From the NCBI GenBank assembly GCA_017649855.1, contig JAGCGA010000019.1:7645-71644 (forward strand): a stretch of 64,000 nt of DNA, in the 5' to 3' direction. Under the pieces are notes generated by a model. That model was not told the origin of the DNA, made no database searches, and saw only the letters and a program-made list of their open reading frames with translations. A program made the position numbers and the translations under genes. The stretch is from Bacteroidales bacterium (GTDB lineage: Bacteria; Bacteroidota; Bacteroidia; Bacteroidales; WCHB1-69). Positions 10,844 to 55,410 of this stretch are shown one piece after another; position 1 is the first letter of the stretch, and every line of letters starts with the position of its first letter.

Positions 10844-10866
10844 ACCATTTTATTTAAATAAGTCTG

Positions 10867-12261: not shown

Positions 12262-12270
12262 TTCCCTATT

Positions 12271-12513: not shown

Positions 12514-12519
12514 AAAAGT

Positions 12520-12527
12520 TATCTTTG
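12520..12527 (+). promoter_or_regulatory. -7 box TAtcTTTG upstream of the MFS transporter
   Basis: TATCTTTG followed by CGGC, 44 nt before the ATG at 12572. Confidence 0.55.
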
Positions 12528-12571
12528 CGGCTTTGTATGAAGAAATCTAATAATCATTAAAAATAATCTGT

Positions 12572-14206: not shown

Positions 14207-14282
14207 TCATTCATTACCATATAAATCTATAAACGGGAGACTCTTCTTAGCCAAGGAGAGTCTCTCTTTTCTCTAACCGAAT

Positions 14283-15311: not shown

Positions 15312-15394
15312 CCATTGGCTATTAGCTAACGGCCAATGGCCAATAGTCAAAGTATAATTCAAATGCAACAATAAAACCGACAAAAAAGATTATT

Positions 15395-39615: not shown

Positions 39616-40852
39616 CATAGGCGATGAATTATTGATCGGGCAGGTGGTGAATACCAATGCCGCTTTTATCGGACAACAGATGGCCTTGGCCGGCCTGGAG
39701 ATGGATGAGGTGCTGACCATCGGTGATGCGGAGGAAGCCATTCGGAACGCAATCGTTTCCTCTTTTGAGAAGACCGATGTGATCCTCATGACAGGTGGAC
39801 TTGGTCCTACCAAAGATGATATCACCAAGAAGGTGGTCTGCGACTATTACCATCGTGATTTGGTGATCGATGAAGCCACCTTGCAAGCCGTCACCCAGCG
39901 ATTCGCCGACCGTGGTATGGCCCTGACGGAGACCAACCGTCAACAGGCGGCCGTGCCCGAGGGGGCGGTGGTGCTTTCCAACAGTTTGGGCACCGCTCCC
40001 GGCCTTTGGATAGAGGAGGTGGGGAAAGTGCTGATTATGTTGCCGGGAGTGCCTTTCGAGATGGAGAAACTGATCAAAGAGGAGGTGTTGCCCCGTCTTC
40101 AGGCCCGCCGCACCGACCATCACGCCATCCAATATAGGGTGTTGCAATGCACCAACATCACGGAGAGCGGTCTCTCCGACCTGCTGGAAGATTATGAAAA
40201 GCAGCTGCCCGAGAACCTCTCGTTAGCCTATCTGCCCAAGCCGGGCATCATCCGCCTGCGCCTGACGGGCAGGGGAGAAGATGCCGCCCAGCTGCAACAG
40301 ACGCTCGAGGCCCAGTTCCAGCTGCTCAAGCAGGCGGTAGGCGAGTATGCTTTTGCCGATGAGGACAAGGAGATGGAGGAGATTGTGGGACAGCTATTGC
40401 TGAAACGTGGCTGTCGAATGGCCACGGCCGAGAGCTGCACGGGAGGCTATATTGCCCATCTCGTCACCTCGGTGCCGGGCAGTTCCCGTTATTTCCAAGG
40501 CTCTGTGGTCTCCTATAGCAATGAGGTCAAGCGGGAGATCCTGAATGTGCGTGAGGACAACCTGCGCAAGCGCGGTGCCGTCAGTGAGGAGGTGGTCAGC
40601 GACATGGCTCTCAACGTGATGGGATTGTTGGATGTGGACTATGCAGTGGCCACTTCGGGCATTGCCGGCCCTGATGGTGGCACGGAGGAGAAACCCGTGG
40701 GCACCGTGTGGGTGGCTGTGGCTACGCCTGTGCGTCTGGTTACCCATAAGTTCCAATTTGGCAAACGCATGGGCCGCCAGCAGATCATCGAACGTGCCGC
40801 CCGCGCCGCCCTCAACATGCTCCGCATAGAGATTGAAAAAGATATCCGATGA
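39602..40852 (+). CDS. cinA: CinA-family competence/damage-inducible protein (NMN deamidase)
   Basis: 416 aa with IGDELL.GQ..NTNA, TGGLGPT.DD and a C-terminal TAESCTGG. Confidence 0.9.
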   Translation: MILINIGDELLIGQVVNTNAAFIGQQMALAGLEMDEVLTIGDAEEAIRNAIVSSFEKTDVILMTGGLGPTKDDITKKVVCDYYHRDLVIDEATLQAVTQRFADRGMALTETNRQQAAVPEGAVVLSNSLGTAPGLWIEEVGKVLIMLPGVPFEMEKLIKEEVLPRLQARRTDHHAIQYRVLQCTNITESGLSDLLEDYEKQLPENLSLAYLPKPGIIRLRLTGRGEDAAQLQQTLEAQFQLLKQAVGEYAFADEDKEMEEIVGQLLLKRGCRMATAESCTGGYIAHLVTSVPGSSRYFQGSVVSYSNEVKREILNVREDNLRKRGAVSEEVVSDMALNVMGLLDVDYAVATSGIAGPDGGTEEKPVGTVWVAVATPVRLVTHKFQFGKRMGRQQIIERAARAALNMLRIEIEKDIR

Positions 40853-41748
40853 AACCGATCGTTGACCGATTCCGGCAATATCTGATCCTGGAACGCAACA
40901 AGTCCGCCAACAGCGTGGCAGCCTATGTCCATGATGTGGAGTTGTTGCTGGATTTCTTGGGCGACACGCCACCCGAGAAGGCCACAACCGACCAGTTGAA
41001 AGGCTTTCTGCAAGACCTCTACGACCGGGGGATGACCTCCCGTTCCCAGGCCCGCATCCTGTCGGGCATCAAGGCTTTTTACTTTTTTCTGGTCTATGAT
41101 GGCGTTATGAAAGACACCGAGAATCCTACCGAGCTCCTGGATGCGCCCAAGATCGGCTTGCACCTGCCCGATGTGCTGTCCATCGAGGAGATAGAGGCGA
41201 TCATCAACCAGATTGACATGAGCAAACCCGAAGGGCACCGGAACCGCGCCATGGTGGAGGTGATGTACGGCTGCGGTCTGCGTGTCAGCGAGTTGGTGAC
41301 GCTCAAGATCTCCAACCTTTACTTTGAGGAGGGCTTTATCAAGGTGCTGGGCAAAGGCGACAAGGAACGTTTTGTCCCGATAGGGGAGACGGCTCAAAAG
41401 CAGGTCAACCACTATCTCCAAGGGGCGCGCCTGCATTTGAAGATCCAAAAAGGGGAGGAGAACTATCTGTTCTTGAACCGGAGAGGGCATCACCTGACCC
41501 GTGAGATGGTCTTCATGTTGGTCAAGAAGTGGGCGAAGGAGGCCGGCATCACCAAGACCATCAGTCCGCACACCTTCCGCCACTCGTTTGCCACTCATCT
41601 GATAGAAGGGGGTGCCGACCTGCGGGCGGTGCAGCAGATGCTAGGACATGAAAGTATCACCACAACAGAGATTTACACACACTTAGACAACGACTATATC
41701 CGTAGCAACATAGCGTCGTTTCATCCCCGTTACCGGGTCCCTGATTGA
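40849..41748 (+). CDS. xerD: Tyrosine site-specific recombinase XerD-like
   Basis: 299 aa with R..GLRVSEL, HTFRHSFATHLIEGGADLRAVQQMLGHESITTTEIYTH. It has a 4-nt ATGA overlap with cinA. Confidence 0.88.
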   Translation: MKPIVDRFRQYLILERNKSANSVAAYVHDVELLLDFLGDTPPEKATTDQLKGFLQDLYDRGMTSRSQARILSGIKAFYFFLVYDGVMKDTENPTELLDAPKIGLHLPDVLSIEEIEAIINQIDMSKPEGHRNRAMVEVMYGCGLRVSELVTLKISNLYFEEGFIKVLGKGDKERFVPIGETAQKQVNHYLQGARLHLKIQKGEENYLFLNRRGHHLTREMVFMLVKKWAKEAGITKTISPHTFRHSFATHLIEGGADLRAVQQMLGHESITTTEIYTHLDNDYIRSNIASFHPRYRVPD

Positions 41749-42477: not shown

Positions 42478-43776
42478 TTATTCTGCTCCGAAGACTCTTT
42501 CAAAGATGGTCGGGACCTCTTTCATATAGTATTCGAGCGTGAAGCACTGAGCCAGCTCTTCGGGCGTGAAGTATTGCCGGATGGTCTCGTTTTGGAGCAG
42601 CAGCTCTTGGTAGTCGTGACCGTCGAACCAGGCCTTCATGGCGATAGGCTGCACGAGGTCATAGGCTTTCTCGCGGGCGAAGCCCTTGTTGATGAGGGCG
42701 GTCATGACGCGCTGGGCGAAGATCACCTTGTTGGTCATATAGATATGTTTCAGCATGTTCTCGGGGAAGACGACGAGGTTTTCGAGGATTCTGCCGAAGC
42801 GGTTGAGCATATAGTCGAGGAGGATGGTGGCGTCGGGGAGCATGATGCGCTCGGCGGAGGAGTGGGAGATGTCGCGCTCGTGCCAGAGGGGGATGTCCTC
42901 GTAGGCGCTGACCATGTAGCCACGGAGGATGCGGGCGCAGCCGCACATGTTCTCGCTCCCGATGGGGTTACGTTTGTGGGGCATGGCGGAGGAACCCTTC
43001 TGTCCTTTGCCGAAGGCCTCTTCCGCTTCGCGCAGCTCGGTGCGTTGCCAGTGGCGCACCTCCACGGCCATCTGCTCCATGGTGGAGCCGATGAGGGCCA
43101 GGGTGGCCATGTAGTGGGCGTGGCGGTCGCGCTGCAAGACCTGGGTGGAGATGTTGGCGGAGTGGATGTCCAGCTGTTCGCACACATAGTCTTGGACGAA
43201 AGGCGGCGTATTGGCGAAATTGCCCACGGCGCCGCTGATCTTGCCACACTCCACATCGGCGGCGGCGGCCTCAAAGCGGGCCATGTTGCGTTTCATCTCC
43301 TCGTACCAGAGGGCCCATTTCAGTCCCAGGGCGGTGATGTCGGCGTGCACGCCGTGCGTGCGCCCGATGCATGGAGTGTCTTTGAACTCGTAGGCGCGCT
43401 TCTTCAGAATCTCCATAAAGCGGTGGAGATCATCGCGTAGGATGTTGTTGGCCTGCAGCAGCAGGTAGCCGTTGGCGGTGTCCACCACATCGGTGGAGGT
43501 GAGCCCGTAGTGCACCCACTTGCGCTCCTCTCCCAACGACTCGCTGACGGCACGTGTGAAGGCCACGATGTCGTGGCGTGTCTCCTGCTCGATCTCATAG
43601 ATGCGCTCCACCTTGAAGGCGGCCTTGTCGCGCAGTTTCTGCACATCCTCGGCAGGGATGACGCCCAGCTTGCTCCAGGCGGCGGCAGCCTCTATTTCCA
43701 CTTTCAGATAAGCACCGAATTTGTTTTCCTCTGTCCAGACGGCGCTCATCTCCGGACGCGAATAACGTGGTATCAT
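42478..43776 (-). CDS. purB: Adenylosuccinate lyase
   Basis: The start is moved to [10 protein letters not shown], the canonical N-terminus. It carries the [10 protein letters not shown] signature. Confidence 0.95.
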
Positions 43777-43816
43777 AGCTTTCGTTTTTGTAGAGTGCAA
43801 AAGTAAAAAAAATAAT

Positions 43817-43824
43817 TATTTTTG
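43817..43824 (+). promoter_or_regulatory. -7 box TAttTTTG reading into the toxin/immunity array
   Basis: TATTTTTG lies about 110 nt upstream of the first open frame of the array. It is divergent from a TActTTTG box for purB at 43798-43805 on the reverse strand. Confidence 0.45.
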
Positions 43825-43931
43825 CTTTTTCAAAAAGAAGAAATCAAAGACATCATAAATGTAATGAGAAAAATAATCTTTTGGATGGCTATTTATAAAC
43901 ATTAGGGGAGGAAGGAACTAAGTATTGGTAG

Positions 43932-44168
43932 ATAAGTAGAAACTTAGGAATAGGGCTGGCCGCTTTGTCTGCTGGAGTAGAGGGGGCAAATTACATCTCA
44001 TACCTCAAGCAATATGGCTATGACTGGAATGTAACTGCAAAAGTCGGGTTGGATTTAATCATGTCTGCCGTAGGCTTTGTTGGTCCTGTCGGCTTGGCAA
44101 TCTCGTCAACATACTTTGTTGTGGATCTTGCAACAGATAGCTTTGGAGGATTTGGTAAAATGTATTAA
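43932..44168 (+). pseudogene. Headless 3' fragment of a polymorphic-toxin C-terminal domain (Gly-rich, hydrophobic)
   Basis: The frame is open from the stop at 43929-43931 with no ATG; the track uses TTG at 43965. It encodes ...GIGLAALSAGVEGANY...LIMSAVGFVGPVGLAISSTYFVVDLATDSFGGFGKMY. It is followed 2 nt later by a multi-TM ORF, the arrangement expected for a toxin remnant plus immunity gene. Confidence 0.45.
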
Positions 44169-44170
44169 AT

Positions 44171-44641
44171 ATGAAAGAAATCAACACTAAAAGAAACAGA
44201 TATATTTTTACGCTCTTTTCGCGAATCTATTTTTGGGTAGAATCGTATGATGTGTTCAATTATTCTGTCCCGCCAATAACATCCCTATTTTATATTTTTC
44301 AATTTATCGGTTGTTTATTTCCATTGTTTCTGCGCATATTTGGCTATTTTTCTAATTATAACTTTGCTTATATGTCTGAAATAGGAGGAAATAAAATGAT
44401 ATTGTATTTTTACTTAACAATACTTCTTATAACTACTATTATGACAATAGTTTTGCAAGCGAATGATGGGAAGAATTATAAAAAAATGGAAGTTTATGCA
44501 GGAAAAGATTTTCTTCAACATTTGGATGAAAAAGGAGAAAAAAGGCCCTTTCTGTTATACGTTTTCGTTTTTGTCAATTTGCTCTTCACACCAATTTTTA
44601 TAAGTGTATTTAGCATTCTATCTTTATGTTCATATCGGTGA
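44171..44641 (+). CDS. Multi-pass membrane protein; candidate immunity protein
   Basis: 156 aa, 4 hydrophobic segments, very AT-rich codons, located immediately after the toxin remnant. Confidence 0.5.
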   Translation: MKEINTKRNRYIFTLFSRIYFWVESYDVFNYSVPPITSLFYIFQFIGCLFPLFLRIFGYFSNYNFAYMSEIGGNKMILYFYLTILLITTIMTIVLQANDGKNYKKMEVYAGKDFLQHLDEKGEKRPFLLYVFVFVNLLFTPIFISVFSILSLCSYR

Positions 44642-44674
44642 AACTACAGGAAGTTTTTATCTATAATAGAAATT

Positions 44675-44848
44675 CACATGACACACAGCAGTAACTTTAC
44701 AAATAGTATCTTAACCTATCCATACCCGGTCATCGCCCGCTTCTTCTCGCCCGACAACTACGTGCAGGCGCCGGGGAGCACGCAGGGCTATAACCGCTAC
44801 TCCTACTGCCTGAACAACCCGTTGCGTTGGGTGGACCCGAGCGGGGAG
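44675..44848 (+). repeat. Rhs core-end ('tip') repeat, copy A, full length
   Basis: A GC-rich block encoding HMTHSSNFTNSILTYPYPVIARFFSPDNYVQAPGSTQGYNRYSYCLNNPLRWVDPSGE. Positions 44675-44784 match 47809-47918 with about 4 mismatches in 110 nt. Positions 44750-44848 match 46577-46675 at roughly 80% by eye. Confidence 0.85.
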
Positions 44849-45535
44849 TTTCTTTGGGAACCGGATAAGCAAGCATTGATTGAAGGTCGAGGCGTTAGAT
44901 TCATTGCACAAGAAGGGGATGATTTATATACCTTCAGTATTCAGTCAGGGCTTGATTATGGTTATTTAAAATCCCTCTATGGGGATATGGTTTTCGAAGC
45001 AGGACATTCTTATTCTTTTGATGAGATTCCCGTCATTGCAAAGATGAATGAGTTTTTACATAATGGGATGAATTGCGAAAACTATAATTGTAGATCATTT
45101 GCTTTGTTTGTCAATGGGATTGTTAATGATAATTTTGATTATGACCCTACTGTTATCTCCGAACAATTACAAAATGTGAGTTCTGTTTCACATTCCACAA
45201 TAGGTGATGTTATTTCATTAGCCGAAACATACGAATATTTCTACAAACAATATTGGACTCATTATGACAACCCATATTGGTATTCCGAGAAGGAATTTTA
45301 TGCATTTTATGTAAGCGGTTATTCAACAAGAATAACACATTATAGTGTTGTCCTGTTGAAAAGTCCAGACGGCAATGACATTTCATGGATTATAGAGAAA
45401 CGAGGGAAATTTCCCGTTAACATATCTACCTTTCCGAGTTTGCAAAAAGAAGATTCCGAAGGACATTATTATCAACCTTATAACCCTACCCCAATCCAAG
45501 CCAATCATTCAACTTTTTTATATCGACATCATTAA
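44678..45535 (+). CDS. Orphan Rhs-type polymorphic toxin cassette: Rhs core end plus a C-terminal domain with a LysM-like segment and a candidate Cys/His papain-fold dyad
   Basis: 285 aa. The N-terminal 57 aa are the conserved Rhs/YD core terminus ending DPSGE. Downstream, IAQEGDDLYTFSIQSGLDYGYLKSLYG is weakly LysM-like, YNCRSFALF is a candidate nucleophile and ITHYSVVLL a candidate His. Confidence 0.7.
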   Translation: MTHSSNFTNSILTYPYPVIARFFSPDNYVQAPGSTQGYNRYSYCLNNPLRWVDPSGEFLWEPDKQALIEGRGVRFIAQEGDDLYTFSIQSGLDYGYLKSLYGDMVFEAGHSYSFDEIPVIAKMNEFLHNGMNCENYNCRSFALFVNGIVNDNFDYDPTVISEQLQNVSSVSHSTIGDVISLAETYEYFYKQYWTHYDNPYWYSEKEFYAFYVSGYSTRITHYSVVLLKSPDGNDISWIIEKRGKFPVNISTFPSLQKEDSEGHYYQPYNPTPIQANHSTFLYRHH

Positions 45536-45550
45536 AGCCATAATTCTGTC

Positions 45551-46072
45551 ATGAATAGAATAATCCTTCTCTACCTATCACTGCTGTCAACGTTATGTTA
45601 CGCACAACAGCCCTCACACAACGACTCCATCTCTGTGGTCAGAACCGTTCATGAGCTAATTAATTCAGATTCTAAAAATGTGATGCTCAGAACGAACGAT
45701 ATTTGTTTCCAGTTTGTATATCTGCATTTGGACACCTCCGACTATCAGACTCGGATTTTATTAGATTCTATTGCCGGTTTTTTGTTGTCAAATGACGATG
45801 TTGAAGCCGTTGAGGTTGACATTCACCTATCCCTTGCTGAATGGGATGAATCCTATTCCGCAAGCTTGCTTTTGTACATGTACGAGGAAATCATATCCTA
45901 TTTAGGAAATTGCGGGGTGGACACAACGTATGTGACCGGAAAGCAATGCTATAATTATTTCCCTATAGTCAATTGCAATGAATTGTCAGGGGAGGAAAGA
46001 AGAAATTGCTTTGTCAATGATGATCCCAAAGTGAATCATCGTGTTGAATTTGTGATAAAAAGGATGAAATGA
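45551..46072 (+). CDS. Secreted OmpA_C-like protein; candidate periplasmic immunity protein
   Basis: 173 aa. Signal peptide MNRIILLYLSLLSTLCYAQQ. The C-terminus ...NHRVEFVIKRMK resembles the NRRVE(I/F) end of OmpA-like peptidoglycan-binding domains. Confidence 0.5.
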   Translation: MNRIILLYLSLLSTLCYAQQPSHNDSISVVRTVHELINSDSKNVMLRTNDICFQFVYLHLDTSDYQTRILLDSIAGFLLSNDDVEAVEVDIHLSLAEWDESYSASLLLYMYEEIISYLGNCGVDTTYVTGKQCYNYFPIVNCNELSGEERRNCFVNDDPKVNHRVEFVIKRMK

Positions 46073-46144
46073 TGAAGCAAGGTTATATTCCTATAGGTTT
46101 TCCTGGTTTTCCATTCCAATAACACCAATAACAATTGTGTATAT

Positions 46145-46522
46145 ATGTTAAGATATTTAGAATATTGTTTCTACAAATATTGCTATCTTTACACCAAATG
46201 GAGTAAACGTTTAAAAAAATTAAATTATTTTTGGGGAGAAAGATTTGTCAGTACGATGGTACTGCTAAATGTTCTAACAATTATAATGTGTATTCAATTA
46301 TTATTATATAAAAAAATTTTTTTCTTGCGTTTGTCAATACTGACACTTATTATTATTACACCCTTGGACATAATCTTTATTGACCATTTTTCAGAGAAAA
46401 AATATGAAGAACTTAAAAATAAATATCAAGGCGAGAAAAATGCAAAACTAAAAGAATTGGGAGTCTTCCTTTATTCTCTTTTATCCATAATCATCGTTGT
46501 TGTTTTACTCATAATATTTTAA
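46145..46522 (+). CDS. Small multi-TM protein; candidate orphan immunity protein
   Basis: 125 aa, three hydrophobic helices, extremely AT-rich, with no toxin ORF directly upstream. Confidence 0.4.
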   Translation: MLRYLEYCFYKYCYLYTKWSKRLKKLNYFWGERFVSTMVLLNVLTIIMCIQLLLYKKIFFLRLSILTLIIITPLDIIFIDHFSEKKYEELKNKYQGEKNAKLKELGVFLYSLLSIIIVVVLLIIF

Positions 46523-46540
46523 TACAAGAAATCAAGCCCA

Positions 46541-47299
46541 ATGTTCAACCTTTTCTCCTCTACTGTTTGCAGGTTCCCCGACAACTTCGTGCAGGCGCCG
46601 GAGAGCACGCAGGGCTACAACTGCTACAGCTACTGCCTCAACAACCCGCTGAAGAGGGTCGATCCTAGCGGGGAGGTCTCTCTAACTCCTTGGTATCTGG
46701 ACCTTATTGGCTTTGTCCATTGGATTGACCATATGGACGAAATGCCTTCGTATGGAACATATTTAGGGGAACAAGGTTGTTTTGTCAGTAATGACGAAAT
46801 GAAATATTATCATGCGGATGGAAGAATAACACAATTGGATATTCCAGAAGTGCAAATTGATGGTACAATAACAAGCACTCCTTTTCCCAATAATAACAAA
46901 TATACAGATTCTCAATACGATTACTCCGAAAAAAACAATAATAATGTTCTGAATAGTCAAGTTGTCGACATTACTTTAAATGCTGTTGGCGTAGTTTCTT
47001 CTGTGGTGTCAGAAGAAGGGAAAGGTGTTCTTAAATATACTGTTGAAGGTGTAGGTTGGATAACCTATGGGACACAAAACGCCAGAGTTGCCAAAAATAT
47101 ATATGAAAATAAAAGATTAACAATCGAAGATAGCTATGATTTGGTAACAATAAACGTTGGTTTCTGGGGAGGACCTGGCGGCGAAATGATTGCTTTCACA
47201 TTGGATATGTATAAAAGGGCAGCCATCTGGATAAGCAATTATTACAGTGAATTGGAAATGGAGTTAAGACGTATGAACACACCCGAGATATTTTATTAG
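46541..47299 (+). CDS. Orphan Rhs-type polymorphic toxin cassette with a shortened tip and an unrelated C-terminal domain
   Basis: 252 aa. MFNLFSSTVCRFPDNFVQAPESTQGYNCYSYCLNNPLKRVDPSGE is followed by a novel domain. Its C-terminal part is Gly-rich and hydrophobic (VTINVGFWGGPGGEMIAFTLDMY), loosely like the fragment at 43932-44168. Confidence 0.68.
   Translation: MFNLFSSTVCRFPDNFVQAPESTQGYNCYSYCLNNPLKRVDPSGEVSLTPWYLDLIGFVHWIDHMDEMPSYGTYLGEQGCFVSNDEMKYYHADGRITQLDIPEVQIDGTITSTPFPNNNKYTDSQYDYSEKNNNNVLNSQVVDITLNAVGVVSSVVSEEGKGVLKYTVEGVGWITYGTQNARVAKNIYENKRLTIEDSYDLVTINVGFWGGPGGEMIAFTLDMYKRAAIWISNYYSELEMELRRMNTPEIFY
46577..46675 (+). repeat. Rhs tip repeat, copy B, 3' part only
   Basis: CCCGACAACTTCGTGCAGGCGCCGGAGAGCACGCAGGGCTACAAC...AGCGGGGAG aligns with 44750-44848. 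Confidence 0.8.
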
Positions 47300-47309
47300 T
47301 TTTATTATT

Positions 47310-47828
47310 ATGAAGTCGAAATGGTCTCTATTTAATATGATTTCGGAAGGGATTATTCCTGTTTTGTGCACTTTGATCATCATTCCATTGTCAATTTGTT
47401 TTATTATGCATATTGGGTGGCTTGATACAGTATGGGAAAACATTTTGCTCGTTTTTTTTATGTTAAATGCACTTTTTCTGTTTGGTATATACCCATTGGC
47501 TGTGTTTGTGAAATGTATATCTTACGATAGGGATACAGTTCTTCGTTATGATATTGCTCAGGATACGATATACTATGAAAGAAAAGACATTATAGTCCGA
47601 TTTTCTTTATCCGAAATTCAGTCCATAGTGATGATTCAGTCACGAGTCCTAACTGTCGGGGAATGTGTTTATGAAATCAAGTTGTATTCAGGCTACGTTA
47701 TTTCCGTAACAGATTTGATTGCAGATGCCAAATATATCATCAAAGCTGTAGAAAATGTTGAATCAGTATATGAGAATCTGCTTTTCAACCCTTTTTATAA
47801 TAAGAATCCACATGTCACACAGCAGTAA
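47310..47828 (+). CDS. Multi-TM protein; candidate immunity protein
   Basis: 172 aa with two N-terminal TM helices and a soluble C-terminal domain. It starts 10 nt after the toxin stop, and its last 7 codons run into tip repeat C. Confidence 0.5.
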   Translation: MKSKWSLFNMISEGIIPVLCTLIIIPLSICFIMHIGWLDTVWENILLVFFMLNALFLFGIYPLAVFVKCISYDRDTVLRYDIAQDTIYYERKDIIVRFSLSEIQSIVMIQSRVLTVGECVYEIKLYSGYVISVTDLIADAKYIIKAVENVESVYENLLFNPFYNKNPHVTQQ

Positions 47829-47918
47829 CTTTACAAATAGTATCTTAACCTATCCACACCCGGTCATCGCCCGCTTCTTCTCGCCCGACAACTTCGTGCA
47901 GGCGCCGGAGAGCACGCA
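47809..47918 (+). repeat. Rhs tip repeat, copy C, 5' part, truncated
   Basis: 110 nt nearly identical to 44675-44784. Similarity stops abruptly after ...GAGAGCACGCA, before the GYNxYSYCLNNP codons. Confidence 0.85.
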
Positions 47919-47940
47919 AAACAGCAATCGAACCAAATAA
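47812..47940 (+). pseudogene. Truncated Rhs core-end remnant with no toxin domain
   Basis: Encodes MSHSSNFTNSILTYPHPVIARFFSPDNFVQAPESTQ followed by NSNRTK and a stop. Confidence 0.65.
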
Positions 47941-47977
47941 TTTACACCTCACTATGTCATCGCTATATTCTTTTTGC

Positions 47978-47985
47978 TATTTTTG
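47978..47985 (+). promoter_or_regulatory. -7 box TAttTTTG upstream of trkA
   Basis: TATTTTTG followed by CGAC, 24 nt before the ATG at 48010. Confidence 0.55.
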
Positions 47986-48009
47986 CGACTTCTTTATAAA
48001 ATCACGATT

Positions 48010-48708
48010 ATGGCACAGGAAAAATTTGTGGTGATTGGCGCTGGACATTTCGGTCAAGCTATCAGCCGGGCTCTCTCTGAAAAGGGGCACGAGGTGTTGG
48101 TGATTGACAACGACATCAAAGTGGTGCAGGACATCTCCGAGGATGTGGCCTATGCTGTCTGTACTGACGCCACCAACAAACGGGCACTGATCAACGAGAA
48201 TATCCAAACCTTCGACGTGGCCATTGTGGCCATCGGCAACGACTTTGTGGGCCGGCTGCTCTGTACCGCCAACCTGCTTGACTTGGGCGTGAAGCGCATC
48301 ATCTGCCGCGTCATGGGCGAGAACCAGCGGACCATCCTCTCCAAAATGGGCATCAGCGAGTTCCTGTCCCCTGAAGACGAGGTGGGCGCCCTGCTCGCGG
48401 AACGCCTCACCAACCCCAATATCATCTCCTATCTGCAACTTCCTGACGGCTACAAGGTGGCGGAGATCATCGCCCCCAGCAGCCTGGAAGGCCTCACCCT
48501 GGGCGATATCGATTTCCGCGACAACCATAAACTGAGTTTGATCACCATCCGCCGGAGCTTTACCGAGACGGATGCCGACAACAAGGAACAGATCCAGCAG
48601 CACATCATCGGTGTGCCCGACACTTCATCCGTCATCCAAAAGGACGACGTGTTTGTCTTGTTCGGCAAGGAGAGCGATCTGGATAACTTTATCAAAATCA
48701 ACTTGTAA
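48010..48708 (+). CDS. trkA: Potassium uptake protein TrkA/KtrA (RCK domain)
   Basis: The start is moved to MAQEKFVVIGAGHFG, a Rossmann motif downstream of the promoter box. TrkA-N and TrkA-C organisation. Confidence 0.9.
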   Translation: MAQEKFVVIGAGHFGQAISRALSEKGHEVLVIDNDIKVVQDISEDVAYAVCTDATNKRALINENIQTFDVAIVAIGNDFVGRLLCTANLLDLGVKRIICRVMGENQRTILSKMGISEFLSPEDEVGALLAERLTNPNIISYLQLPDGYKVAEIIAPSSLEGLTLGDIDFRDNHKLSLITIRRSFTETDADNKEQIQQHIIGVPDTSSVIQKDDVFVLFGKESDLDNFIKINL

Positions 48709-50519
48709 TGTGGTTTAATAAATCACATAAAGAGTACGCTCATAGCAAGCTGAAACTCCATATTGCAACACATAAGGAGAAGGTGTATCGTATCTTACAG
48801 GTGCTCAGTCTGTTCATTTCCCTGACGACCATCGCCTGCATCATCTGCTATCACGGTCTCTATATCTCCACCTATCTGAAGAATGTCTTCCGCTGGGTTA
48901 TCTTCGGCAGTTTGCTGTTCTATGTGGTCAAGTATTTTCTGATGCTTTTCTATTCCCTGCACCGCATCGAGTATCTGAAACGATCGTGGTTTGAAGGCAT
49001 CATTATCGCGTTGCTGATCCTGCAGTTTTTCTCCTATTTCATCTTCAACTTTGACTTGAGGATGATCAGCTCTATCAATTTCGAGAACTATTATCTCCTG
49101 TTCATCCAGTTCTATTTTCTTATCATCGTGCTGATAGAGTTCACCAAGGTCAGCGGCCTGATGGGGCGTCATAAGATCAGTCCGCCCGTGCTGATGTTGC
49201 TCTCTTTTTTCATGTTGATACTTGTGGGAACGGTCCTGCTCTCCATGCCGAGGATGACCACCAACGGCATCTCCTTGATTGATGCGCTGTTTACGGCTAC
49301 CAGTGCCAGCTGTATCACGGGCTTGACCACCGTGAGTACGGGCACGGCCTTCACCATCAAAGGACAGATTGTAATCATGATCCTGGTGCAGCTAGGCGGT
49401 ATGAGCATCCTGTCCTTCGCAACCTTCTTCTCCACTTTCCTGTCGCAGTCGTACGTGGGGCTCCGCTACCAGTATATGGTGCGCGATATCATGAACACGG
49501 ACCAGCTGTCAGATACTGTCTCCCTGGTTCGCAGCATTGTGCTGACCACCTTCACCATTGAGCTGGTGGGTGCGGCATTGCTGTTTACCTATTGGAAGAC
49601 AACCGGCATTTTCCATTCCGACGGGCAGAATCTGTTCTATTCGCTCTTCTATGCCATCTCTGCCTTTAACAACGGTGGCTTTGTCCTGGTTGACAAGAGT
49701 CTGCTGGAGATGGGGGTGGACAACACCTATTTCCCGCAGATCGTGATGATGGCGCTGGTCTTTTTGGGCGGTATCGGCTTTTTGACCATCCGTGATTTCT
49801 TCAGTACCCGTTATATCCGCCAGCGTAACAAGTACAAATGGAAAAAACTGATGCCCCAGACACAGGTGGTGCTGTTGACCACCTTTGCGTTGATTATTGT
49901 GGGCACCATTCTTTTCTTCTTTATTGAGAACAAACATGCGCTAAGTGGTCAGGGAGGACTCTTTGACAGGATGTTTGTGGCGCTTTTCCAAATTGTGACC
50001 TGCCGGACTTCCGGATTTACCGTGTTGGATATCAGCAGTATGCACCTTTCCTCGGTGATGATCATCATCTTGCTTATGTTTATTGGCGGGGCTCCGGGCT
50101 CCACGGGTGGCGGTATCAAGACCACCACTTTGTTCGTGTTGGTCCAGAGCATCAAGGCCACTGTCTTGGGAAAGAAACGGCTGGAACACAATCATCGTAC
50201 GATCCCGTTCTCCATGGTGGATCGTGCCAGCACCATTGTGATGATGTCTTTGATCTTTATTTTCGCCTCTTGCTTCTTGATAGCGGTGGTACAACCCGAT
50301 GTGCCCCTGATGGATGTGATGTTTGAGACCACCTCCGGCTTCACCACCTGCGGTCTATCCACGGGCGCGCCAGCCACCTGGAATTGGGCGGCCAAGCTGG
50401 TGCTGATCTTCGACATGTACATTGGACGTATCGGCACGTTGACCATTGCCTTTGCCTTGACGCGGCAGAGGAAAGAGTCGCAGCATCAGTATCCGGATAT
50501 GTACATCATGGTAGGTTAG
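48708..50519 (+). CDS. trkH: Potassium transporter TrkH/KtrB family
   Basis: 603 aa, polytopic, with repeated selectivity-filter-like segments (SASCITGL, AFNNGGF, RTSGFT, TTCGLSTG). Its start overlaps the trkA stop. Confidence 0.9.
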   Translation: MWFNKSHKEYAHSKLKLHIATHKEKVYRILQVLSLFISLTTIACIICYHGLYISTYLKNVFRWVIFGSLLFYVVKYFLMLFYSLHRIEYLKRSWFEGIIIALLILQFFSYFIFNFDLRMISSINFENYYLLFIQFYFLIIVLIEFTKVSGLMGRHKISPPVLMLLSFFMLILVGTVLLSMPRMTTNGISLIDALFTATSASCITGLTTVSTGTAFTIKGQIVIMILVQLGGMSILSFATFFSTFLSQSYVGLRYQYMVRDIMNTDQLSDTVSLVRSIVLTTFTIELVGAALLFTYWKTTGIFHSDGQNLFYSLFYAISAFNNGGFVLVDKSLLEMGVDNTYFPQIVMMALVFLGGIGFLTIRDFFSTRYIRQRNKYKWKKLMPQTQVVLLTTFALIIVGTILFFFIENKHALSGQGGLFDRMFVALFQIVTCRTSGFTVLDISSMHLSSVMIIILLMFIGGAPGSTGGGIKTTTLFVLVQSIKATVLGKKRLEHNHRTIPFSMVDRASTIVMMSLIFIFASCFLIAVVQPDVPLMDVMFETTSGFTTCGLSTGAPATWNWAAKLVLIFDMYIGRIGTLTIAFALTRQRKESQHQYPDMYIMVG

Positions 50520-50569
50520 CGTAATGGATCTTTGCCACTAATTATCGTGAAATAAAAAAGAACTTTATA

Positions 50570-51532
50570 ATGAAAAAAGTATTAGGAATAGGAAATGCAT
50601 TGGTTGACATATTGGTCAACGTGAAGGATGAAGAGATTGCCCGTTATGGATTGCAGAAGGGCGGCATGAGTATGATCGATGCGGAGCGCAAGCGAGCGTT
50701 GCACGCGCAGTTGCGGGATGTGCCCCAGGTGTGCGCCACCGGCGGCTCCACGTCCAACACCATCCACGCCTTGGCCCGGCTGGGCATGCCGGCCGGCTAT
50801 ATTGGCAAGGTGGGCAATGACGAGATGGGTGACTTCTTCCGTCGCGAGATGGAGCGCTTCGGCGTTACCCCACACCTGATACACTCCGACACCGACACGG
50901 GCATTGCCACCACCTATATCTCCGCCGACGGGGAGCGCACCTTTGCCACCTATCTGGGCGCCGCTGCCGAGATGACCGCCGAGGAGGTCAACCCCGACAT
51001 CTTGTCGCAGTACGACCTCATCCACGTGGAGGGCTATCTCATCTTCAACCACGACCTGATCCTGCGCGTCTGCCAGGCTGCCAAAGCCCAAGGTCTTCGC
51101 ATCTCCATGGATATGGCCAGCTATAACCTCATCGAAGAGCATTACGACTTTGTGGAGATGCTCCTGCGCGAGTATGTCGATATCATCTTTGCCAACGAGG
51201 AAGAGGCCAAGGCATTCACCCATAAGGAGGGACTGGAAGCCCTGGAGGTTCTGTCACATTATTGTGACGTGGCCATTGTCAAGGTGGGCAAGGACGGTTC
51301 CTACATTCAAATGAATGGACAGACCACCCAGGTGGATCCGGTGGAAGCCACTCGCGTTGACACCACCGGCGCCGGCGATATCTATGCCGCTGGCTTCCTC
51401 TACGGCTATCTGAACGGGATGAGCGCCGAAGAAACGGGAAGGCTGGCCTCTTGGCTCTCGGCACGAATGATTGAAAATGTAGGCGCCAAGCTGCCGGACG
51501 AGGTGTGGGCAAAAGTTCCGGAAATGCTATAA
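50570..51532 (+). CDS. PfkB-family carbohydrate or nucleoside kinase (adenosine kinase-like)
   Basis: 320 aa with an N-terminal GNALVD and the C-terminal DTTGAGDIYAAGFLYG signature. Confidence 0.85.
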   Translation: MKKVLGIGNALVDILVNVKDEEIARYGLQKGGMSMIDAERKRALHAQLRDVPQVCATGGSTSNTIHALARLGMPAGYIGKVGNDEMGDFFRREMERFGVTPHLIHSDTDTGIATTYISADGERTFATYLGAAAEMTAEEVNPDILSQYDLIHVEGYLIFNHDLILRVCQAAKAQGLRISMDMASYNLIEEHYDFVEMLLREYVDIIFANEEEAKAFTHKEGLEALEVLSHYCDVAIVKVGKDGSYIQMNGQTTQVDPVEATRVDTTGAGDIYAAGFLYGYLNGMSAEETGRLASWLSARMIENVGAKLPDEVWAKVPEML

Positions 51533-51562
51533 AAAAAGAGGTTTTGAATAGCCAAAACCTCT
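51530..51562 (-). terminator. Terminator downstream of tRNA-Thr; the hairpin is shared with the convergent kinase gene
   Basis: AGAGGTTTTG-N6-CAAAACCTCT. The reverse strand has a T7 run after the hairpin. Confidence 0.65.
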
Positions 51563-51570
51563 TGATGTTG

Positions 51571-51643
<73 letters not shown>

Positions 51644-51657
51644 TTGCTTTGAGGCGG

Positions 51658-51665
51658 CAAAAATA
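51658..51665 (-). promoter_or_regulatory. -7 box TAttTTTG (reverse strand) upstream of tRNA-Thr
   Basis: The reverse complement reads GTGTATTTTTGCCGCC, 14 nt before the tRNA 5' end. Confidence 0.6.
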
Positions 51666-51775
51666 CACTTTTTTTTGATATGAGACTCATTAAACATTTT
51701 TTTGCTTTTGACATGCCCTTTTTCGCAACGACAAGGTTGTCGGGAACTGGCACGCAGAACGAGAATAGATAGGCC

Positions 51776-52327
51776 ATGAACATACTTACTCTGTTACTGT
51801 TAGCACTCAGTCTGGCGATGGATTGTTTCGCGGTCAGCTGCACGGCCGGGATCACCCAGCCCAACCTCCGCTGGAAGAACGTCCTGCTGTTTGCCTTCTC
51901 TTTCGGCTTTTTCCAAGCCATGATGCCCCTGATCGGCTATCTGTTGGGGGTCTCTGTTTCCCAGTTTGTGGAGCGGTATGCCCCGTGGATTGCCTTTGGC
52001 CTGCTGGCATTCATCGGAGGGAAGATGATCTTGGAAGGGGTGCGCAACAATGAGGAGACCATGGTGGACATGAGCACCCTCAAGAGTGTGCTGCTGCTAT
52101 CGGTGGCCACCAGCATCGATGCCCTGGCCGTGGGATTCTCCTTCTCGCTGCTGGAGAACACGTCGATTGCGCTGGCCGTGTTCCTGATAGGTGTCGTCTC
52201 TTTTGGGGCTTCCATCCTGGGTTATGAGCTGACGCGCCAGTTTGGCAAACACATCAAAAGCCATATCGCCGAGATTATCGGCGGCATCGTGCTGATCGGC
52301 ATCGGTCTGCGAATTTTGATTTTTTAA
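51776..52327 (+). CDS. mntP: Manganese efflux pump MntP
   Basis: 183 aa, six TM helices, with the duplicated LAMDCFAVS and TSIDALAVG motifs. Confidence 0.9.
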   Translation: MNILTLLLLALSLAMDCFAVSCTAGITQPNLRWKNVLLFAFSFGFFQAMMPLIGYLLGVSVSQFVERYAPWIAFGLLAFIGGKMILEGVRNNEETMVDMSTLKSVLLLSVATSIDALAVGFSFSLLENTSIALAVFLIGVVSFGASILGYELTRQFGKHIKSHIAEIIGGIVLIGIGLRILIF

Positions 52328-52353
52328 GAGCGAAACGAAGACGAAAGGGACGG

Positions 52354-53418
52354 TTATCGCTTGACGATCTTCCGTATGGTCTGGTGTGCCCCGTTCTGAA
52401 GGTGCAGGAGGTAGATGCCGGATGGGAAATCTTCCAAGGAGATGGTCATATCCTCTGCTTCAGAGAAGGTGGTGGACCATAGTATCTGACCGGTGAGACT
52501 GTACAGTTGGCAGGTCAGGGGCTCGTCCAGCGCCGTGATGTTGATGTGCACATAGTCGGCGGTGGGGTTGGGATAGAGGCTGCAGGTGGCCAGTGCATAG
52601 TCATCCACGGCTGTCACGAAGGGCTGCAGGGTGTCGCTCCCGAAGATCATATTGACCAGTTCGGGAAAGTCGATGAATGGGTTGCGATTTTTCTGAATGC
52701 CATAGATGGCGTTGTTCCGGTCGATCTCCTTCTGGCTTACCGGATCCAGGGCATGCCAGCTGAGCAGCATTTGCTGTGCCCAGGGCTTGAGGGAGCCGCC
52801 ATTAAACATGGACTGACCGTAGCCCATGTTTTTGTTCATATAGCAGACAGCCATGTAAAAGTAGGAGCGGGCCAGGTCGCCTTTATAGGCATCGATGGGT
52901 TCGAAGACCTGTCCGTTATAGCCAGGTGTGGCGCAGGAGCCCACCTTGGAGCCGTTGAGGCTGGTCCAGGTGGCGTTGCCGACCTTTCCGAAGGGCAGGT
53001 TGCCGCGTTTGTTGTTCACCCATCCGTCGGTGGGGTAGAGGTGAAAAAGGTCGGTATACATGGAATCAGCGCCATTGAACCAGCTTTGGGGTACGGAGTG
53101 CTCGCGGTTGTAACAGTCACCCTCTGAGTCGTAGTTGCCACACTGGTTGGTCCCAAAAGTGTAGAGATAGGGCGCCTGGCCGTTGGGATTGTCGGAATAG
53201 ATGTCCCACACCTTGCCGTCGGGGCGGGCGTCGGTGCTGTAGAAATCCGCCCACAATTCACCATAGTCTTCCTCTATGTGATTTTTGATGATCTGGTGCA
53301 AGGCCACCCGCAGGGCATAACCGTGCAGGTTTTCGGCAGATTGGTAGTAGTCGGTTGGAATTTGGGCAAACAGGCTGGTAGCCACGGCCATCCATAGTAT
53401 GCTGAGAAAAGGTTTCAT
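52354..53418 (-). CDS. Secreted endonuclease I-family nuclease with a T9SS C-terminal sorting domain
   Basis: The start is moved to MKPFLSILWMAVATSLFAQ, a signal peptide. NREHSVPQSWF and DLFHLYPTDGWVNNKRGNLPFG match the endonuclease I (EndA/Vvn) pattern. The C-terminus is SLYPNPTADYVHINI...GIYLLHLQNGAHQTIRKIVKR. Confidence 0.85.
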   Translation of the reverse strand: MKPFLSILWMAVATSLFAQIPTDYYQSAENLHGYALRVALHQIIKNHIEEDYGELWADFYSTDARPDGKVWDIYSDNPNGQAPYLYTFGTNQCGNYDSEGDCYNREHSVPQSWFNGADSMYTDLFHLYPTDGWVNNKRGNLPFGKVGNATWTSLNGSKVGSCATPGYNGQVFEPIDAYKGDLARSYFYMAVCYMNKNMGYGQSMFNGGSLKPWAQQMLLSWHALDPVSQKEIDRNNAIYGIQKNRNPFIDFPELVNMIFGSDTLQPFVTAVDDYALATCSLYPNPTADYVHINITALDEPLTCQLYSLTGQILWSTTFSEAEDMTISLEDFPSGIYLLHLQNGAHQTIRKIVKR

Positions 53419-53438
53419 TGTGTTAAAATTGTGAGGGC

Positions 53439-53446
53439 AAAAATAG
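53439..53446 (-). promoter_or_regulatory. -7 box TAttTTTG (reverse strand) upstream of the nuclease gene
   Basis: The reverse complement of CAAAAATA, about 21 nt upstream of the ATG. Confidence 0.5.
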
Positions 53447-53528
53447 CAAAATATATGGTCGGAGAGATATCCCTTTTTTCGTGGTGATAGTTTTTTGCAA
53501 AAAAGCGCGAATTGTCTGATAAATTGAT

Positions 53529-53536
53529 TATTTTTG
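53529..53536 (+). promoter_or_regulatory. -7 box TAttTTTG upstream of the mutA-like gene
   Basis: TATTTTTG followed by CGC, 24 nt before the ATG at 53561. Confidence 0.55.
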
Positions 53537-53560
53537 CGCTTTCTTTTTATTGACGAAAAT

Positions 53561-55408
53561 ATGGCAGACGAAAAGTTATTTACCGAATTTCCGCCCATCT
53601 CCACGGAGCAATGGGAAGCAACCATTCAAAAAGATTTAAAAGGCGCTGATTATCAGAAAAAGTTGGTGTGGCGTACCGATGAAGGATTTCAGGTACCCCC
53701 CTATTATCGTGCTGAAGATTTGAAAGAGTTGGATTATCTGAAAACGCTCCCGGGTGAGTTTCCGTTTTTGCGTGGCTCCAAGGCTGACAGCAACCAGTGG
53801 GATATCGTGCAAACTATCGACGAGGCTGATCCCGCCAAGGCCAACGCCATTGCCATGGATGCTCTGATGCGCGGTGCCACCTGTATCTGTTTTGATGCCA
53901 GCAAGATTGATGGCCCCGAAGCCCTGGCCACGCTCCTCAACGGCATCGAGCTGACCGCTGCCGGCGTGCAGTTCAACCATGTGAAGAGCTATCTCGACCT
54001 GATGAAACTCTTCGTGGCTTATGTGGAAGAGAAAAAATATGACAAGCAGCAGATCTCCGGCCATATCAACTTCGATCCGCTGGTATATCGTCTCAAACAT
54101 AACAAGTTCTACTTCTCCCAGCAGGAGGATATGCAGCAGACGCTGGAGTTGTTGAAGCTGGGCGAGGGGATGCCGAAGTTCAAGGTCATCAACGTCAATG
54201 GCGTGGTGTTGCACAACGCCGGTGCCACCATCGTGCAGGAGATGGCCTATACGCTGGCCCTGGCCAACGAGTATATCAATTTCTGCGTGGAGCAGGGAAT
54301 GCCGGTCGCCAAGGTGGCTTCCCGCATCCAGTTTACCCTTTCCGTGGGTTCCAACTACTTCATGGAGATTGCCAAGCTGCGTGCCATCCGTCTGCTCTGG
54401 TCCACGATGGTGGAACAGTACAAGCCGGAATGCGATTGTGCTTACAAGTTGCGCATCAACACGGTGGCATCCACGTGGAACAAGACGCTGTATGACCCCT
54501 ACGTCAACATGTTGCGCAGTACCACGGAGGGCATGTCTGCCGTGATCGGCGGTGCCGATGCCATCTCCCTGCAGCCGTTTGATGTGGCCTACAAGCCGTC
54601 CGACGAGTTCTCCCGCCGTATTGCCCGCAATGTGCAGGTCATCCTCAAGGAGGAGGCCTTCTTGGACTATGTGGTGGATCCGGCCGCTGGCTCCTACTAT
54701 ATCGAGAATCTTACCAATTCATTGGCCGAGCATGTGTGGAAGCTGTTCCAGCAGGTGGAAGCCGATGGCGGTGCGCTGAAGGCCATCGAAGACGGCACCA
54801 TGAAGGCCGCCATCGAGGAGAGCTGCCAAAAGCGCGACATGGATATCGCCACCCGTCGCTATGTATTGCTGGGCACGAACCAATACCCGAATATCAATGA
54901 GAAGATGGCGGACAAGATCGAGCGGGTGTTCGAAGATGACGATGAGGGCCTGAAGACTTACCGCGGGGCCGCTGCCTTCGAAGCTATCCGTTTGGAGACG
55001 GAAAAATATGCCCAGACGCACAAGCGCCCCTCTGTCTACCTGCTCAAGTTGGGTAACTTGGCCATGCGCCAGGCCCGTGCAGGCTTCATTACCAACTTCT
55101 TCGGCTGTGCCGGCTACGAGATCGTGGAACCTGCCGGCTTCGCTACCGTGGAGGAGGGCATAAAGGCGGTTGCCGAAGCAAAGCCGTCCTTGATCGTGGT
55201 CTGCAGTTCCGATGAGGAGTACGCCACCCTCGGCGTGGAAGCCGTCAAGCAGGCTAAAGCCCAGTTCCCCAGCACGCCTTGCCTCATCGCCGGTAACCCG
55301 ACGGAAGCTATCGAGAGCCTGAAAGAGGTGGGAGCCGATGACTTTATTCACGTAAAAACCAATCTTCTGCAAAGTTTGAAGAGCTATAATGAAAAATTGT
55401 TGAAGTAA
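53561..55408 (+). CDS. mutA: Methylmalonyl-CoA mutase small (beta) subunit-like protein
   Basis: The start is moved to MADEKLFTEFPP. It has EQWE...DLKGADY..L.W.T.EG, PGEFPF.RG, a TIM-barrel-like middle, and a C-terminal Rossmann-like domain without an obvious DxHxxG cobalamin-ligand motif, as is typical of beta subunits. Confidence 0.8.
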   Translation: MADEKLFTEFPPISTEQWEATIQKDLKGADYQKKLVWRTDEGFQVPPYYRAEDLKELDYLKTLPGEFPFLRGSKADSNQWDIVQTIDEADPAKANAIAMDALMRGATCICFDASKIDGPEALATLLNGIELTAAGVQFNHVKSYLDLMKLFVAYVEEKKYDKQQISGHINFDPLVYRLKHNKFYFSQQEDMQQTLELLKLGEGMPKFKVINVNGVVLHNAGATIVQEMAYTLALANEYINFCVEQGMPVAKVASRIQFTLSVGSNYFMEIAKLRAIRLLWSTMVEQYKPECDCAYKLRINTVASTWNKTLYDPYVNMLRSTTEGMSAVIGGADAISLQPFDVAYKPSDEFSRRIARNVQVILKEEAFLDYVVDPAAGSYYIENLTNSLAEHVWKLFQQVEADGGALKAIEDGTMKAAIEESCQKRDMDIATRRYVLLGTNQYPNINEKMADKIERVFEDDDEGLKTYRGAAAFEAIRLETEKYAQTHKRPSVYLLKLGNLAMRQARAGFITNFFGCAGYEIVEPAGFATVEEGIKAVAEAKPSLIVVCSSDEEYATLGVEAVKQAKAQFPSTPCLIAGNPTEAIESLKEVGADDFIHVKTNLLQSLKSYNEKLLK

Positions 55409-55410
55409 CA

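Follow-up and report, generated by a model that had tools for sequence, protein, structure and literature searches.

Within the 64-kb stretch of contig JAGCGA010000019.1 analyzed here (the window), from an uncultured rumen Bacteroidales bacterium, the housekeeping genes purB and trkA are separated by a block of ~4.2 kb and ~36% GC content, set between flanks of 55 to 60% GC, that carries Rhs-type toxin and immunity cassettes. We consider it likely that this block is what is left of a canonical rhs locus after deletion of its shell, and that it now functions as the poly-immunity operon of a disarmed strain. Alignment with sister strains that keep an intact rhs gene at the same site establishes the remnant structure; the function we infer from the layout, promoter, and alleles of the block. 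The original prediction, made from the window alone, had described a detached, promoter-equipped array unlike the textbook arrangement. In comparison with relatives it becomes a textbook rhs-plus-orphans locus with the main gene deleted and a promoter native to rhs. A shell-less array with its own promoter is thus explained by one deletion, and is no new kind of system.

An rhs locus without its shell

The array (43887-47940; coordinates are positions within the window) has a GC content of 36.4%, or 34.2% once its tips are removed, against 59.5% in purB and 54.6% in trkA. The tips are three GC-rich islands (63-67% GC) that encode the end of the Rhs core, with the peptide PVIARFFSPDN[YF]VQAP[GE]STQGYN.YSYCLNNPL..VDPSGE. 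Two repeat pairs link them, 44662-44784 with 47796-47918 (94% over 123 nt) and 44750-44848 with 46577-46675 (85% over 99 nt), a similarity far beyond chance in the alignments. Against the TIGR03696 profile (NCBIfam Rhs_assc_core; cutoff, 32.5 bits), the open reading frame (ORF) headed by tip 1 (44678-45535) scored 37.0 bits over model positions 40-75 of 76, and that headed by tip 2 (46541-47299) scored 25.2 bits, under the cutoff. As expected of the Rhs core, both tips read …NNPL..VDPSGE, so that a DPxGx boundary precedes the variable toxin. GC content, repeats, and profile therefore confirm that three Rhs core ends lie in an AT-rich block between housekeeping genes, as had been claimed from the window alone. 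The shared tips also stand, but not their proposed length of ~100-170 nt, since homology to the Rhs core covers only 125, 99, and 61 nt in tips 1, 2, and 3, respectively.

All ORFs in the array lie on the plus strand, separated by gaps of 2-72 nt: a 67-aa fragment, ORFs of 156, 285, 173, 125, 252, and 172 aa (163 aa if the second ATG, at 47337, is used), and a 61-aa ORF that extends into non-coding DNA. Besides the rhs promoter and start, the remnant comprises four intact partner genes, two toxin 3' remnants, two intact tip-plus-toxin ORFs, and a dead 13-codon ORF; no convincing terminator was found inside the array. Rhs-type cassettes with unrelated C-terminal domains are upheld by TIGR03696, by tblastn, and by the lack of a shared family, and hydrophobic segments and a signal-like sequence confirm that small secreted or multi-transmembrane (TM) ORFs follow the tip-plus-toxin ORFs. 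Also borne out is a payload-free truncated tip at the right end, where the junction and tip 3 (47796-47918) are 94% identical to 44662-44784. Pfam and PADLOC searches over all array ORFs gave no informative match.

The predicted absence of a YD-repeat shell from the 64 kb holds as well. Neither Pfam on the long ORFs nor tblastn with the full-length Rhs of sister strain L016 found RHS repeats or a shell gene in the window, and that Rhs matched solely the three tips and the second toxin domain, CT2. A 1133-aa ORF at 5965-9366 was rejected as a shell candidate; it has a weak DUF4175 match only and lacks RHS repeats.

The intact counterpart was found in relatives. Comparison contigs are given L numbers. 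A look-up of the window's exact TrkA protein in public assemblies gave contigs of two kinds, either shell-less like the window or with a gene of ~1,930 aa upstream of the cassettes; the exact PurB protein occurs on 5 contigs and is accompanied by a shell-less array wherever this is shown among the matches listed. The order in L016 is purB, a spacer (87 nt between the two start codons), full-length rhs, six orphan modules, a tip scar of 42 codons, and trkA. The Rhs proteins at the purB locus of sister strains are 1923-1952 aa long and comprise a Sec signal peptide, SpvB, FG-GAP, RHS/YD repeats, and TIGR03696; in the L016 protein, the TIGR03696 match covers residues 1631-1723 and ends in VDPSGE, and the true start is ATG -> MRKIIFWILILAFSLHVNVHAQ, a signal peptide. 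An rhs gene lies beside purB in L016/L034, L035, L036/L019 (where Rhs ends at the contig edge), L122, and L123, and L038 too has a long Rhs-sized gene adjoining purB. L004, which is 100% identical to L122 across a 5.6-kb overlap, carries rhs, orphans, and trkA. The full-length shell, reduced to 7 codons in the window, is therefore present at the same locus in its sisters.

The flanks of these shell-bearing strains are 94-97% identical to those of the window. In L016, L004, and L123, orphan modules lie downstream of the main gene in the same orientation and have the core end in common with it; trkA is preceded by a terminal tip scar, of which L024 has a shorter piece. Tip 1 is 89% identical to residues 1684-1729 of the L016 Rhs (tblastn). 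Positions 1-990 of L123 are collinear with window 42896-43886 and positions 6018-16829 with window 44724-55568 (96.5%), leaving 5,027 nt of shell in L123 against 837 nt at that place in the window. The nearest metagenome-assembled genome in GTDB is RGIG7025, and the collection match came from sheep rumen. Taken as aligned, the purB-trkA interval of this species-level rumen Bacteroidales group normally consists of rhs, a string of orphans, and a tip scar.

The left edge of the deletion can be placed to the base. Window 43600-43886 matches L016 1921-2207 at 98.6%, a stretch that covers the whole purB-rhs spacer, the rhs ATG (43864), the codons for MRKIIFW, and two further bases, and the homology ends 2 nt into rhs codon 8. 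Beyond the junction (43886/43887) the sequence is unrelated to rhs and out of frame, reading MAIYKH and a stop; ~15 nt past this stop, in a different frame, begins a toxin 3' fragment, with its usual 156-aa partner next. The junction falls outside the repeats, in unique sequence. Over 43500-48200, the window is matched at 100% identity by three independent assemblies (L001-L003). L037 shares the junction, although its flanking 10 kb are ~5% diverged from the window, and ~160 nt past the junction (from ~44046) it switches to a 74-76% identical allele, with a different cassette following. The junction is thus found in at least 5 independent assemblies and two diverged backgrounds. Because L037 combines the same junction with diverged flanks and a different downstream allele, these sequences mark the deletion as a single event that is not brand new and was later recombined.

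The Bacteroidetes-type box predicted at 43817 (TATTTTTG) is present, with TTTG 30 nt upstream. In L016 the same box is found 40 nt upstream of the ATG of full-length rhs, and L024 and L037 have also kept it. Because it is identically placed before the intact sister gene, the predicted promoter at 43817 is the native promoter of rhs. A sigma-70 scan gave 19 sites against 17.5 expected; as that model is uninformative for Bacteroidetes, counts of TAnnTTTG were used instead. A second TAnnTTTG box lies on the minus strand at 43798-43805 (TACTTTTG), 22-29 nt upstream of the purB start, and the 87-nt spacer between purB and rhs appears to hold back-to-back divergent promoters.

We propose that the ancestral locus was ordered as an Rhs with the type-A toxin, the 156-aa gene, tip-CT1, the 173-aa gene, the type-B remnant with the 125-aa gene, tip-CT2, the PH_40 gene, and the tip scar. 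In the lineage of the window, one deletion of ~5.8 kb would have begun at rhs codon 8 and ended in the type-A toxin that followed, taking the front two-thirds of this toxin with it; the L123 lineage would instead have recombined its main core with tip 1.

Comparison of the interval among relatives, which the original prediction had suggested, revealed not only the intact rhs and the junction but also a range of erosion states, so the interval is far from identical in all relatives: armed, shell-less, one-gene, and empty states were seen. The interval measures 14.2 kb in the armed state of L016 and 4.2 kb in the shell-less window. In L024-L027, whose purB is 97.5% identical to that of the window, it is reduced to 747 nt with a promoter stub, one PH_40 gene, and a tip scar. 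By its sequence this is an independent and more extreme reduction in which the kept gene is of the immunity type. At L024:5320-6068, the stub extends up to the position equivalent to window 43836 and is followed by a 173-aa PH_40-type gene and 15 nt of tip scar. L029-L032 (purB 85% identical to the window's) have an empty 80-nt interval. An exact scan for a 23-nt tip across one genome per species (GTDB collection) returned 6 stretches, none from the window's own strain; in RGIG7025 the exact tip was confined to the purB rhs and one solo, shell-free scar. This solo scar is a 64-nt stretch (L023:2340-2403, minus strand) located directly after a gene for a small protein with a type IX secretion system (T9SS) tail and before tsaE, and its setting identifies it as a second rhs locus that eroded while the small gene was kept. 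In this group, rhs loci evidently erode often.

Toxin domains, remnants, and partner proteins

The toxin domains of the two intact tip-plus-toxin ORFs, CT1 and CT2, are mutually unrelated, and neither matches a Pfam family. L004 and L122 have a full-length Rhs whose C terminus is 97.5% identical to CT1, and in L123 the two are collinear; CT1 is presumably the active C-terminal toxin of the Rhs in all three. An alignment of CT1 relatives contains invariant Asn-Cys, His, and Asp residues, reminiscent of the papain-like NC-H-DxQ toxins reported from SpvB-type carriers (PMC3482391), and our guess is that CT1 may act in the periplasm as a papain-like hydrolase. An AlphaFold2 prediction from a 6-sequence alignment had a mean pLDDT of 44. 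Searched against the PDB, the alignment profile matched only Rhs, teneurin-like, and YenC2 structures through the core ends of its longer rows, and the toxin itself was unmatched. CT1 also occurs behind another, shorter core type (YRYFFNGQE…YDSRLGRWWSVDP…D.KGE; P0002-P0004), and this payload therefore moves between Rhs subfamilies. The 173-aa gene always follows CT1 in L004, L016, L122, and L123; its product differs from the sister alleles by 1-2 residues, and its N terminus (MNRIILLYLSLLSTLCYAQQ) reads as a signal peptide.

The ORF containing CT2 (46541-47299) is 86% identical to residues 1681-1931 of the L016 full-length Rhs, and 94.5% identical at the nucleotide level. CT2 would accordingly be the active C-terminal toxin of the L016 and L035 Rhs proteins. 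Relatives of CT2 are nearly absent from databases (1 cluster in one search; 10 representatives among 1.84 billion proteins). Its N-terminal third (residues 3-77) and C-terminal part (87-208) match different proteins separately, and CT2 may comprise two modules. The PH_40-type protein follows CT2 in L016, L004, and L123 and has 2 N-terminal hydrophobic segments; its assignment to PF26566 (PH_40) was given by precomputed annotation and was not reproduced by a local Pfam search. Together, the 173-aa and PH_40 proteins lie 1-3 residues from the alleles beside active CT1 and CT2.

The tip-less toxin 3' fragment reported at the left end of the array is real and spans 43902-44168, with 56% identity to residues 240-327 of the 327-aa type-A orphan toxin of L016 (tblastn). 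Its 156-aa neighbor has 3 hydrophobic segments and is 73% identical to the gene after type-A toxins in L016 and L004. In L004, an armed sister, the type-A orphan toxin is itself split into ORFs of 202 and 39 aa (L004:5935-6688) beside an intact 156-aa partner, so that orphan toxins decay even with a shell present. A second toxin remnant (46069-46122) abuts the stop codon of the 173-aa gene and precedes the 125-aa gene, whose product has at least 3 hydrophobic segments and whose homologue follows the intact type-B toxin in L016. The 125-aa protein gave a full-length match to NF053699 (bfi_fam; E value, 1.7e-5; 24.8 bits against a cutoff of 100 bits), and the type-A fragment gave 14.7 bits (E value, 0.016) to Bfe1 against a cutoff of 315 bits; the complete L016 type-A toxin had no Bfe1 match. 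Membership of the Bfe1/Bfi1 effector-immunity pair, from B. fragilis GA3's type VI secretion system (T6SS), was rejected, as both scores are far under the NCBIfam equivalog cutoffs and the likeness is distant at most.

Between the window and L004/L016, synonymous divergence (pS) is 0-0.02 in CT1 and in the 173-aa, 125-aa, and PH_40-type genes, compared with 0.06-0.08 in purB and trkA; CT2 is the exception, at 0.08-0.18. This suggests that the cassettes were recently exchanged between strains. Apart from CT2 (0.3-0.5), the genes had so few substitutions that pairwise pN/pS ratios were of no use.

Table 1. Features of the purB-trkA region of the window and the evidence for each
Feature	Position	Strand	Basis
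purB (adenylosuccinate lyase), left flank, transcribed away from the array	42478..43776	-	Pfam Lyase_1 and ADSL_C
Bacteroidetes-type -7 box TATTTTTG, predicted native rhs promoter left after the deletion	43817..43824	+	Sequence conserved before intact rhs
rhs 5' remnant: ATG and 7 codons, MRKIIFW (43864-43884), then MAIYKH and stop	43864..43905	+	Alignment with L016
Type-A toxin 3' fragment, ~88 codons, internal stop, tip-less, hydrophobic Gly-rich C terminus	43902..44168	+	tblastn
156-aa multi-TM protein, presumed immunity partner of type-A toxin	44171..44641	+	3 hydrophobic segments; sister homologue
Inter-cassette junction "leader" with the first orphan's ATG; outside the Rhs core	44662..44723	+	Repeat at 47796-47857
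Tip 1, Rhs core end PVIARFFSPDNYVQAPGSTQGYNRYSYCLNNPLRWVDPSGE, 65.6% GC	44724..44848	+	TIGR03696, 37 bits; tblastn
CT1 toxin domain (whole ORF, 44678-45535)	44849..45535	+	Matches sister-strain Rhs C terminus
173-aa secreted protein, presumed periplasmic immunity partner of CT1	45551..46072	+	Signal-like N terminus; position
Type-B toxin remnant: last 17 codons, MMKQGYIPIGFPGFPFQ, and stop	46069..46122	+	Aligned to end of L016 297-aa toxin
125-aa multi-TM protein, presumed orphan immunity gene of type-B toxin	46145..46522	+	Position in L016; weak bfi_fam match
Second orphan ORF: tip 2 (core homology, 46577-46675) and CT2 (46676-47299)	46541..47299	+	tblastn with L016 Rhs
PH_40-type membrane protein, presumed CT2 immunity partner, 163 aa from 47337	47310..47828	+	Topology; precomputed annotation
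Terminal junction and truncated tip 3 (47858-47918), payload-free, old right end of the rhs island	47796..47918	+	Repeat; same scar in sisters
trkA, right flank	48010..48708	+	Pfam TrkA_N and TrkA_C

Present function and competing explanations

The one-strand layout, the lack of a convincing terminator, the rhs promoter, and the near-identical immunity alleles lead us to read the array as a poly-immunity operon. Lacking both shell and signal peptide, CT1 and CT2 could not be delivered. The rhs promoter now directly precedes the four partner genes, which would be transcribed as one operon and whose products would protect the disarmed strain against toxins still fired by its sister strains. Incoming rhs DNA could still recombine homologously with the intact tips. 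The immunity island considered in the original prediction thus keeps a plausible role, but not as a separately evolved, detached store, since sister strains retain rhs in the same interval.

Several points weigh against this reading. With 0-5 substitutions per cassette gene, there are too few changes to show purifying selection on the immunity genes. The toxin and immunity roles are assigned from position, topology, and analogy. The window covers 64 kb of the genome, and a second rhs may lie elsewhere. Both the mechanism of the deletion and its size (~5.8 kb or more) are reconstructed. Finally, both toxin ORFs remain intact and keep an in-frame ATG, something for which immunity by itself would have no need.

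Because divergence is too low to show selection, a recent neutral remnant stays a serious rival. Under this explanation the deletion is recent, the leftovers are being lost, and none of them is functional now, which we regard as possible but less likely than not. Relatives have eroded stepwise to one gene, to a scar, and to nothing, and the array itself contains dead pieces (the 13-codon ORF and two toxin remnants). On the other hand, all six full-length ORFs are intact; the junction has persisted in backgrounds whose flanks differ by ~5%, and the allele downstream of it was later replaced; and the sole gene kept in the most eroded lineage is the immunity-type PH_40 gene, not a toxin.

It is unlikely that the array is kept as a cassette store, the main proposal of the original prediction, in which the tips recombine with a distal rhs in the same genome and swap in CT1 or CT2. 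Such a store would fit the two intact tip-plus-toxin ORFs, tips that are 85-98% identical to sister core ends, and a pS of 0-0.02 between strains in the cassette genes against 0.06-0.08 in purB and trkA. Tip-mediated rearrangement does occur at this locus, and CT1 and CT2 are main or orphan toxins depending on the strain. Yet the 64-kb window holds no shell, every placeable full-length Rhs of this cluster sits at purB, the exact 23-nt tip in RGIG7025 occurs only at the purB locus and in the shell-free solo scar, and the deletion fully explains the arrangement.

Less probable still is translation of the tip-plus-toxin ORFs from their own ATGs, as free-standing toxins or as intracellular pairs resembling toxin-antitoxin systems. 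Truncated rhs genes are transcribed in bee-gut Snodgrassella (PMC5727410), and both ORFs here have an in-frame ATG, as pointed out in the original prediction. These ATGs, however, lie in a ~62-nt junction sequence that several cassettes have in common and that also precedes orphans in L016; its copy at 47796-47857 overlaps, in another frame, the final codons of PH_40. Because this shared sequence is the PH_40 3' end in one copy and need not be a dedicated start, the ATGs say little in favor of independent translation. Signal peptides and hydrophobic segments are absent from both ORFs. The presumed partners are secreted or membrane proteins, which would place the toxin targets outside the cytoplasm. 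An assembly artifact, with the shell skipped on account of the repeated tips, is scarcely credible, even for short-read metagenome assemblies of a repeat-rich locus, as the junction avoids repeats and is identical in the window, in L001-L003, and in L037 with its different neighboring alleles.

Returning to the poly-immunity operon of a disarmed strain, we tentatively offer a bolder extension that we think doubtful on balance: shell loss could be a recurrent, selected strategy to disarm but stay immune. A deletion would place a poly-immunity operon under the strong rhs promoter, the allele would spread between diverged strains by homologous recombination, and the tips would capture new immunity cassettes from armed relatives. 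Spread of the allele by homologous recombination would explain why the same junction occurs in two backgrounds. Whatever the selective history, one chromosomal site offers a natural series of armed, disarmed with immunity, single immunity gene, scar, and empty states. Such a series in uncultured rumen bacteria would be useful for weighing the costs and benefits of contact-dependent toxins and "cheater" immunity in dense gut communities.

Relation to known systems

Rhs loci with orphan modules, arising from C-terminal displacement, have been described in enterobacteria and in bee gut bacteria (Jackson 2009, PMC2935791; Poole 2011, PMC3150448; Koskiniemi 2014, PMC3967940; Steele 2017, PMC5727410). 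Like these, the locus has a GC-rich core end (…DPxGx) before AT-rich variable toxins, a small immunity gene after each toxin, co-oriented downstream orphans, toxins that are main or orphan by strain, and a payload-free terminal fragment. Unlike these, the main gene in the window is cut to 7 codons, the host is an uncultured rumen Bacteroidales, and the parent Rhs belongs to the signal-peptide/SpvB/FG-GAP class rather than to the PAAR/VgrG-linked T6SS class. The sister Rhs starts with a signal peptide and SpvB, and Pfam found no PAAR in it; called genes around the locus, on the contigs examined, encode housekeeping and T9SS-tail proteins.

Orphan immunity arrays left after effector loss or displacement are known from the T6SS auxiliary clusters of Vibrio cholerae (PMC5361080) and from Snodgrassella (PMC5727410). 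The window similarly keeps immunity genes beside toxin remnants, matching toxins that relatives still use, but it also keeps two complete toxin domains, and protection here is a presumed role. By analogy, the array would work like these orphan immunity arrays and like AID/rAID islands.

The rAID and AID-1 interbacterial defense islands of gut Bacteroidales were reportedly described by Ross et al. in 2019. Measured against the rAID definition as quoted in PMC12247911, the window shares co-oriented short genes of <41% GC, predicted immunity proteins, toxin remnants, and repeated intergenic sequence; its six co-oriented ORFs span 125-285 codons in an array of 36% GC. The repeats in question are the Rhs tips and a cassette junction sequence. 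Membership was rejected, within the terms of that quotation, because a dedicated upstream tyrosine recombinase is lacking and the nearby one is a non-adjacent housekeeping XerD. This recombinase (40849-41748) is an XerD equivalog (TIGR02225, 337 bits; cutoff, 329.6); upp and purB lie between it and the array, and shell-bearing strains have it too. In contrast to rAID islands as so quoted, the array would be an in-situ decay product of a resident rhs locus rather than a mobile element, and its toxins are Rhs payloads rather than known T6SS effectors.

TcdB/TcaC-type polymorphic toxins, which combine a signal peptide, SpvB, an integrin-like propeller, and RHS, and heterogeneous polyimmunity loci were described by Zhang et al. 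(2012, PMC3482391). This is exactly the domain order of Rhs in the sister strains, and the array in the window resembles a polyimmunity locus; unlike that type, the window has no trafficking domains, and no TcA-like partner was seen.

Our literature search found nothing specific on SpvB/FG-GAP Rhs proteins in Bacteroidetes and no description of the small T9SS-tail protein noted above beside the solo scar of RGIG7025. Of 19 diverse metagenome loci tested, 15 encode a protein of this kind, of ~150 aa, upstream of and on the same strand as an SpvB/FG-GAP/Rhs gene, as does L017; no such gene adjoins the purB-locus rhs. Besides a signal peptide, the protein carries one YD-repeat motif (PRTYEYDEAGNRIVRK) and a C-terminal T9SS sorting domain, and it could serve this Rhs class as a T9SS-linked partner. 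Most loci have a gap of less than ~300 nt to the Rhs gene; in three it measures 2-3 kb. The small gene lies at L017:441-893 and L023:2443-2907 (minus strand), with further loci on L043, L044, L046-L049, L051, L053, L056, L061, L064, L066, L068, L071, and L076.

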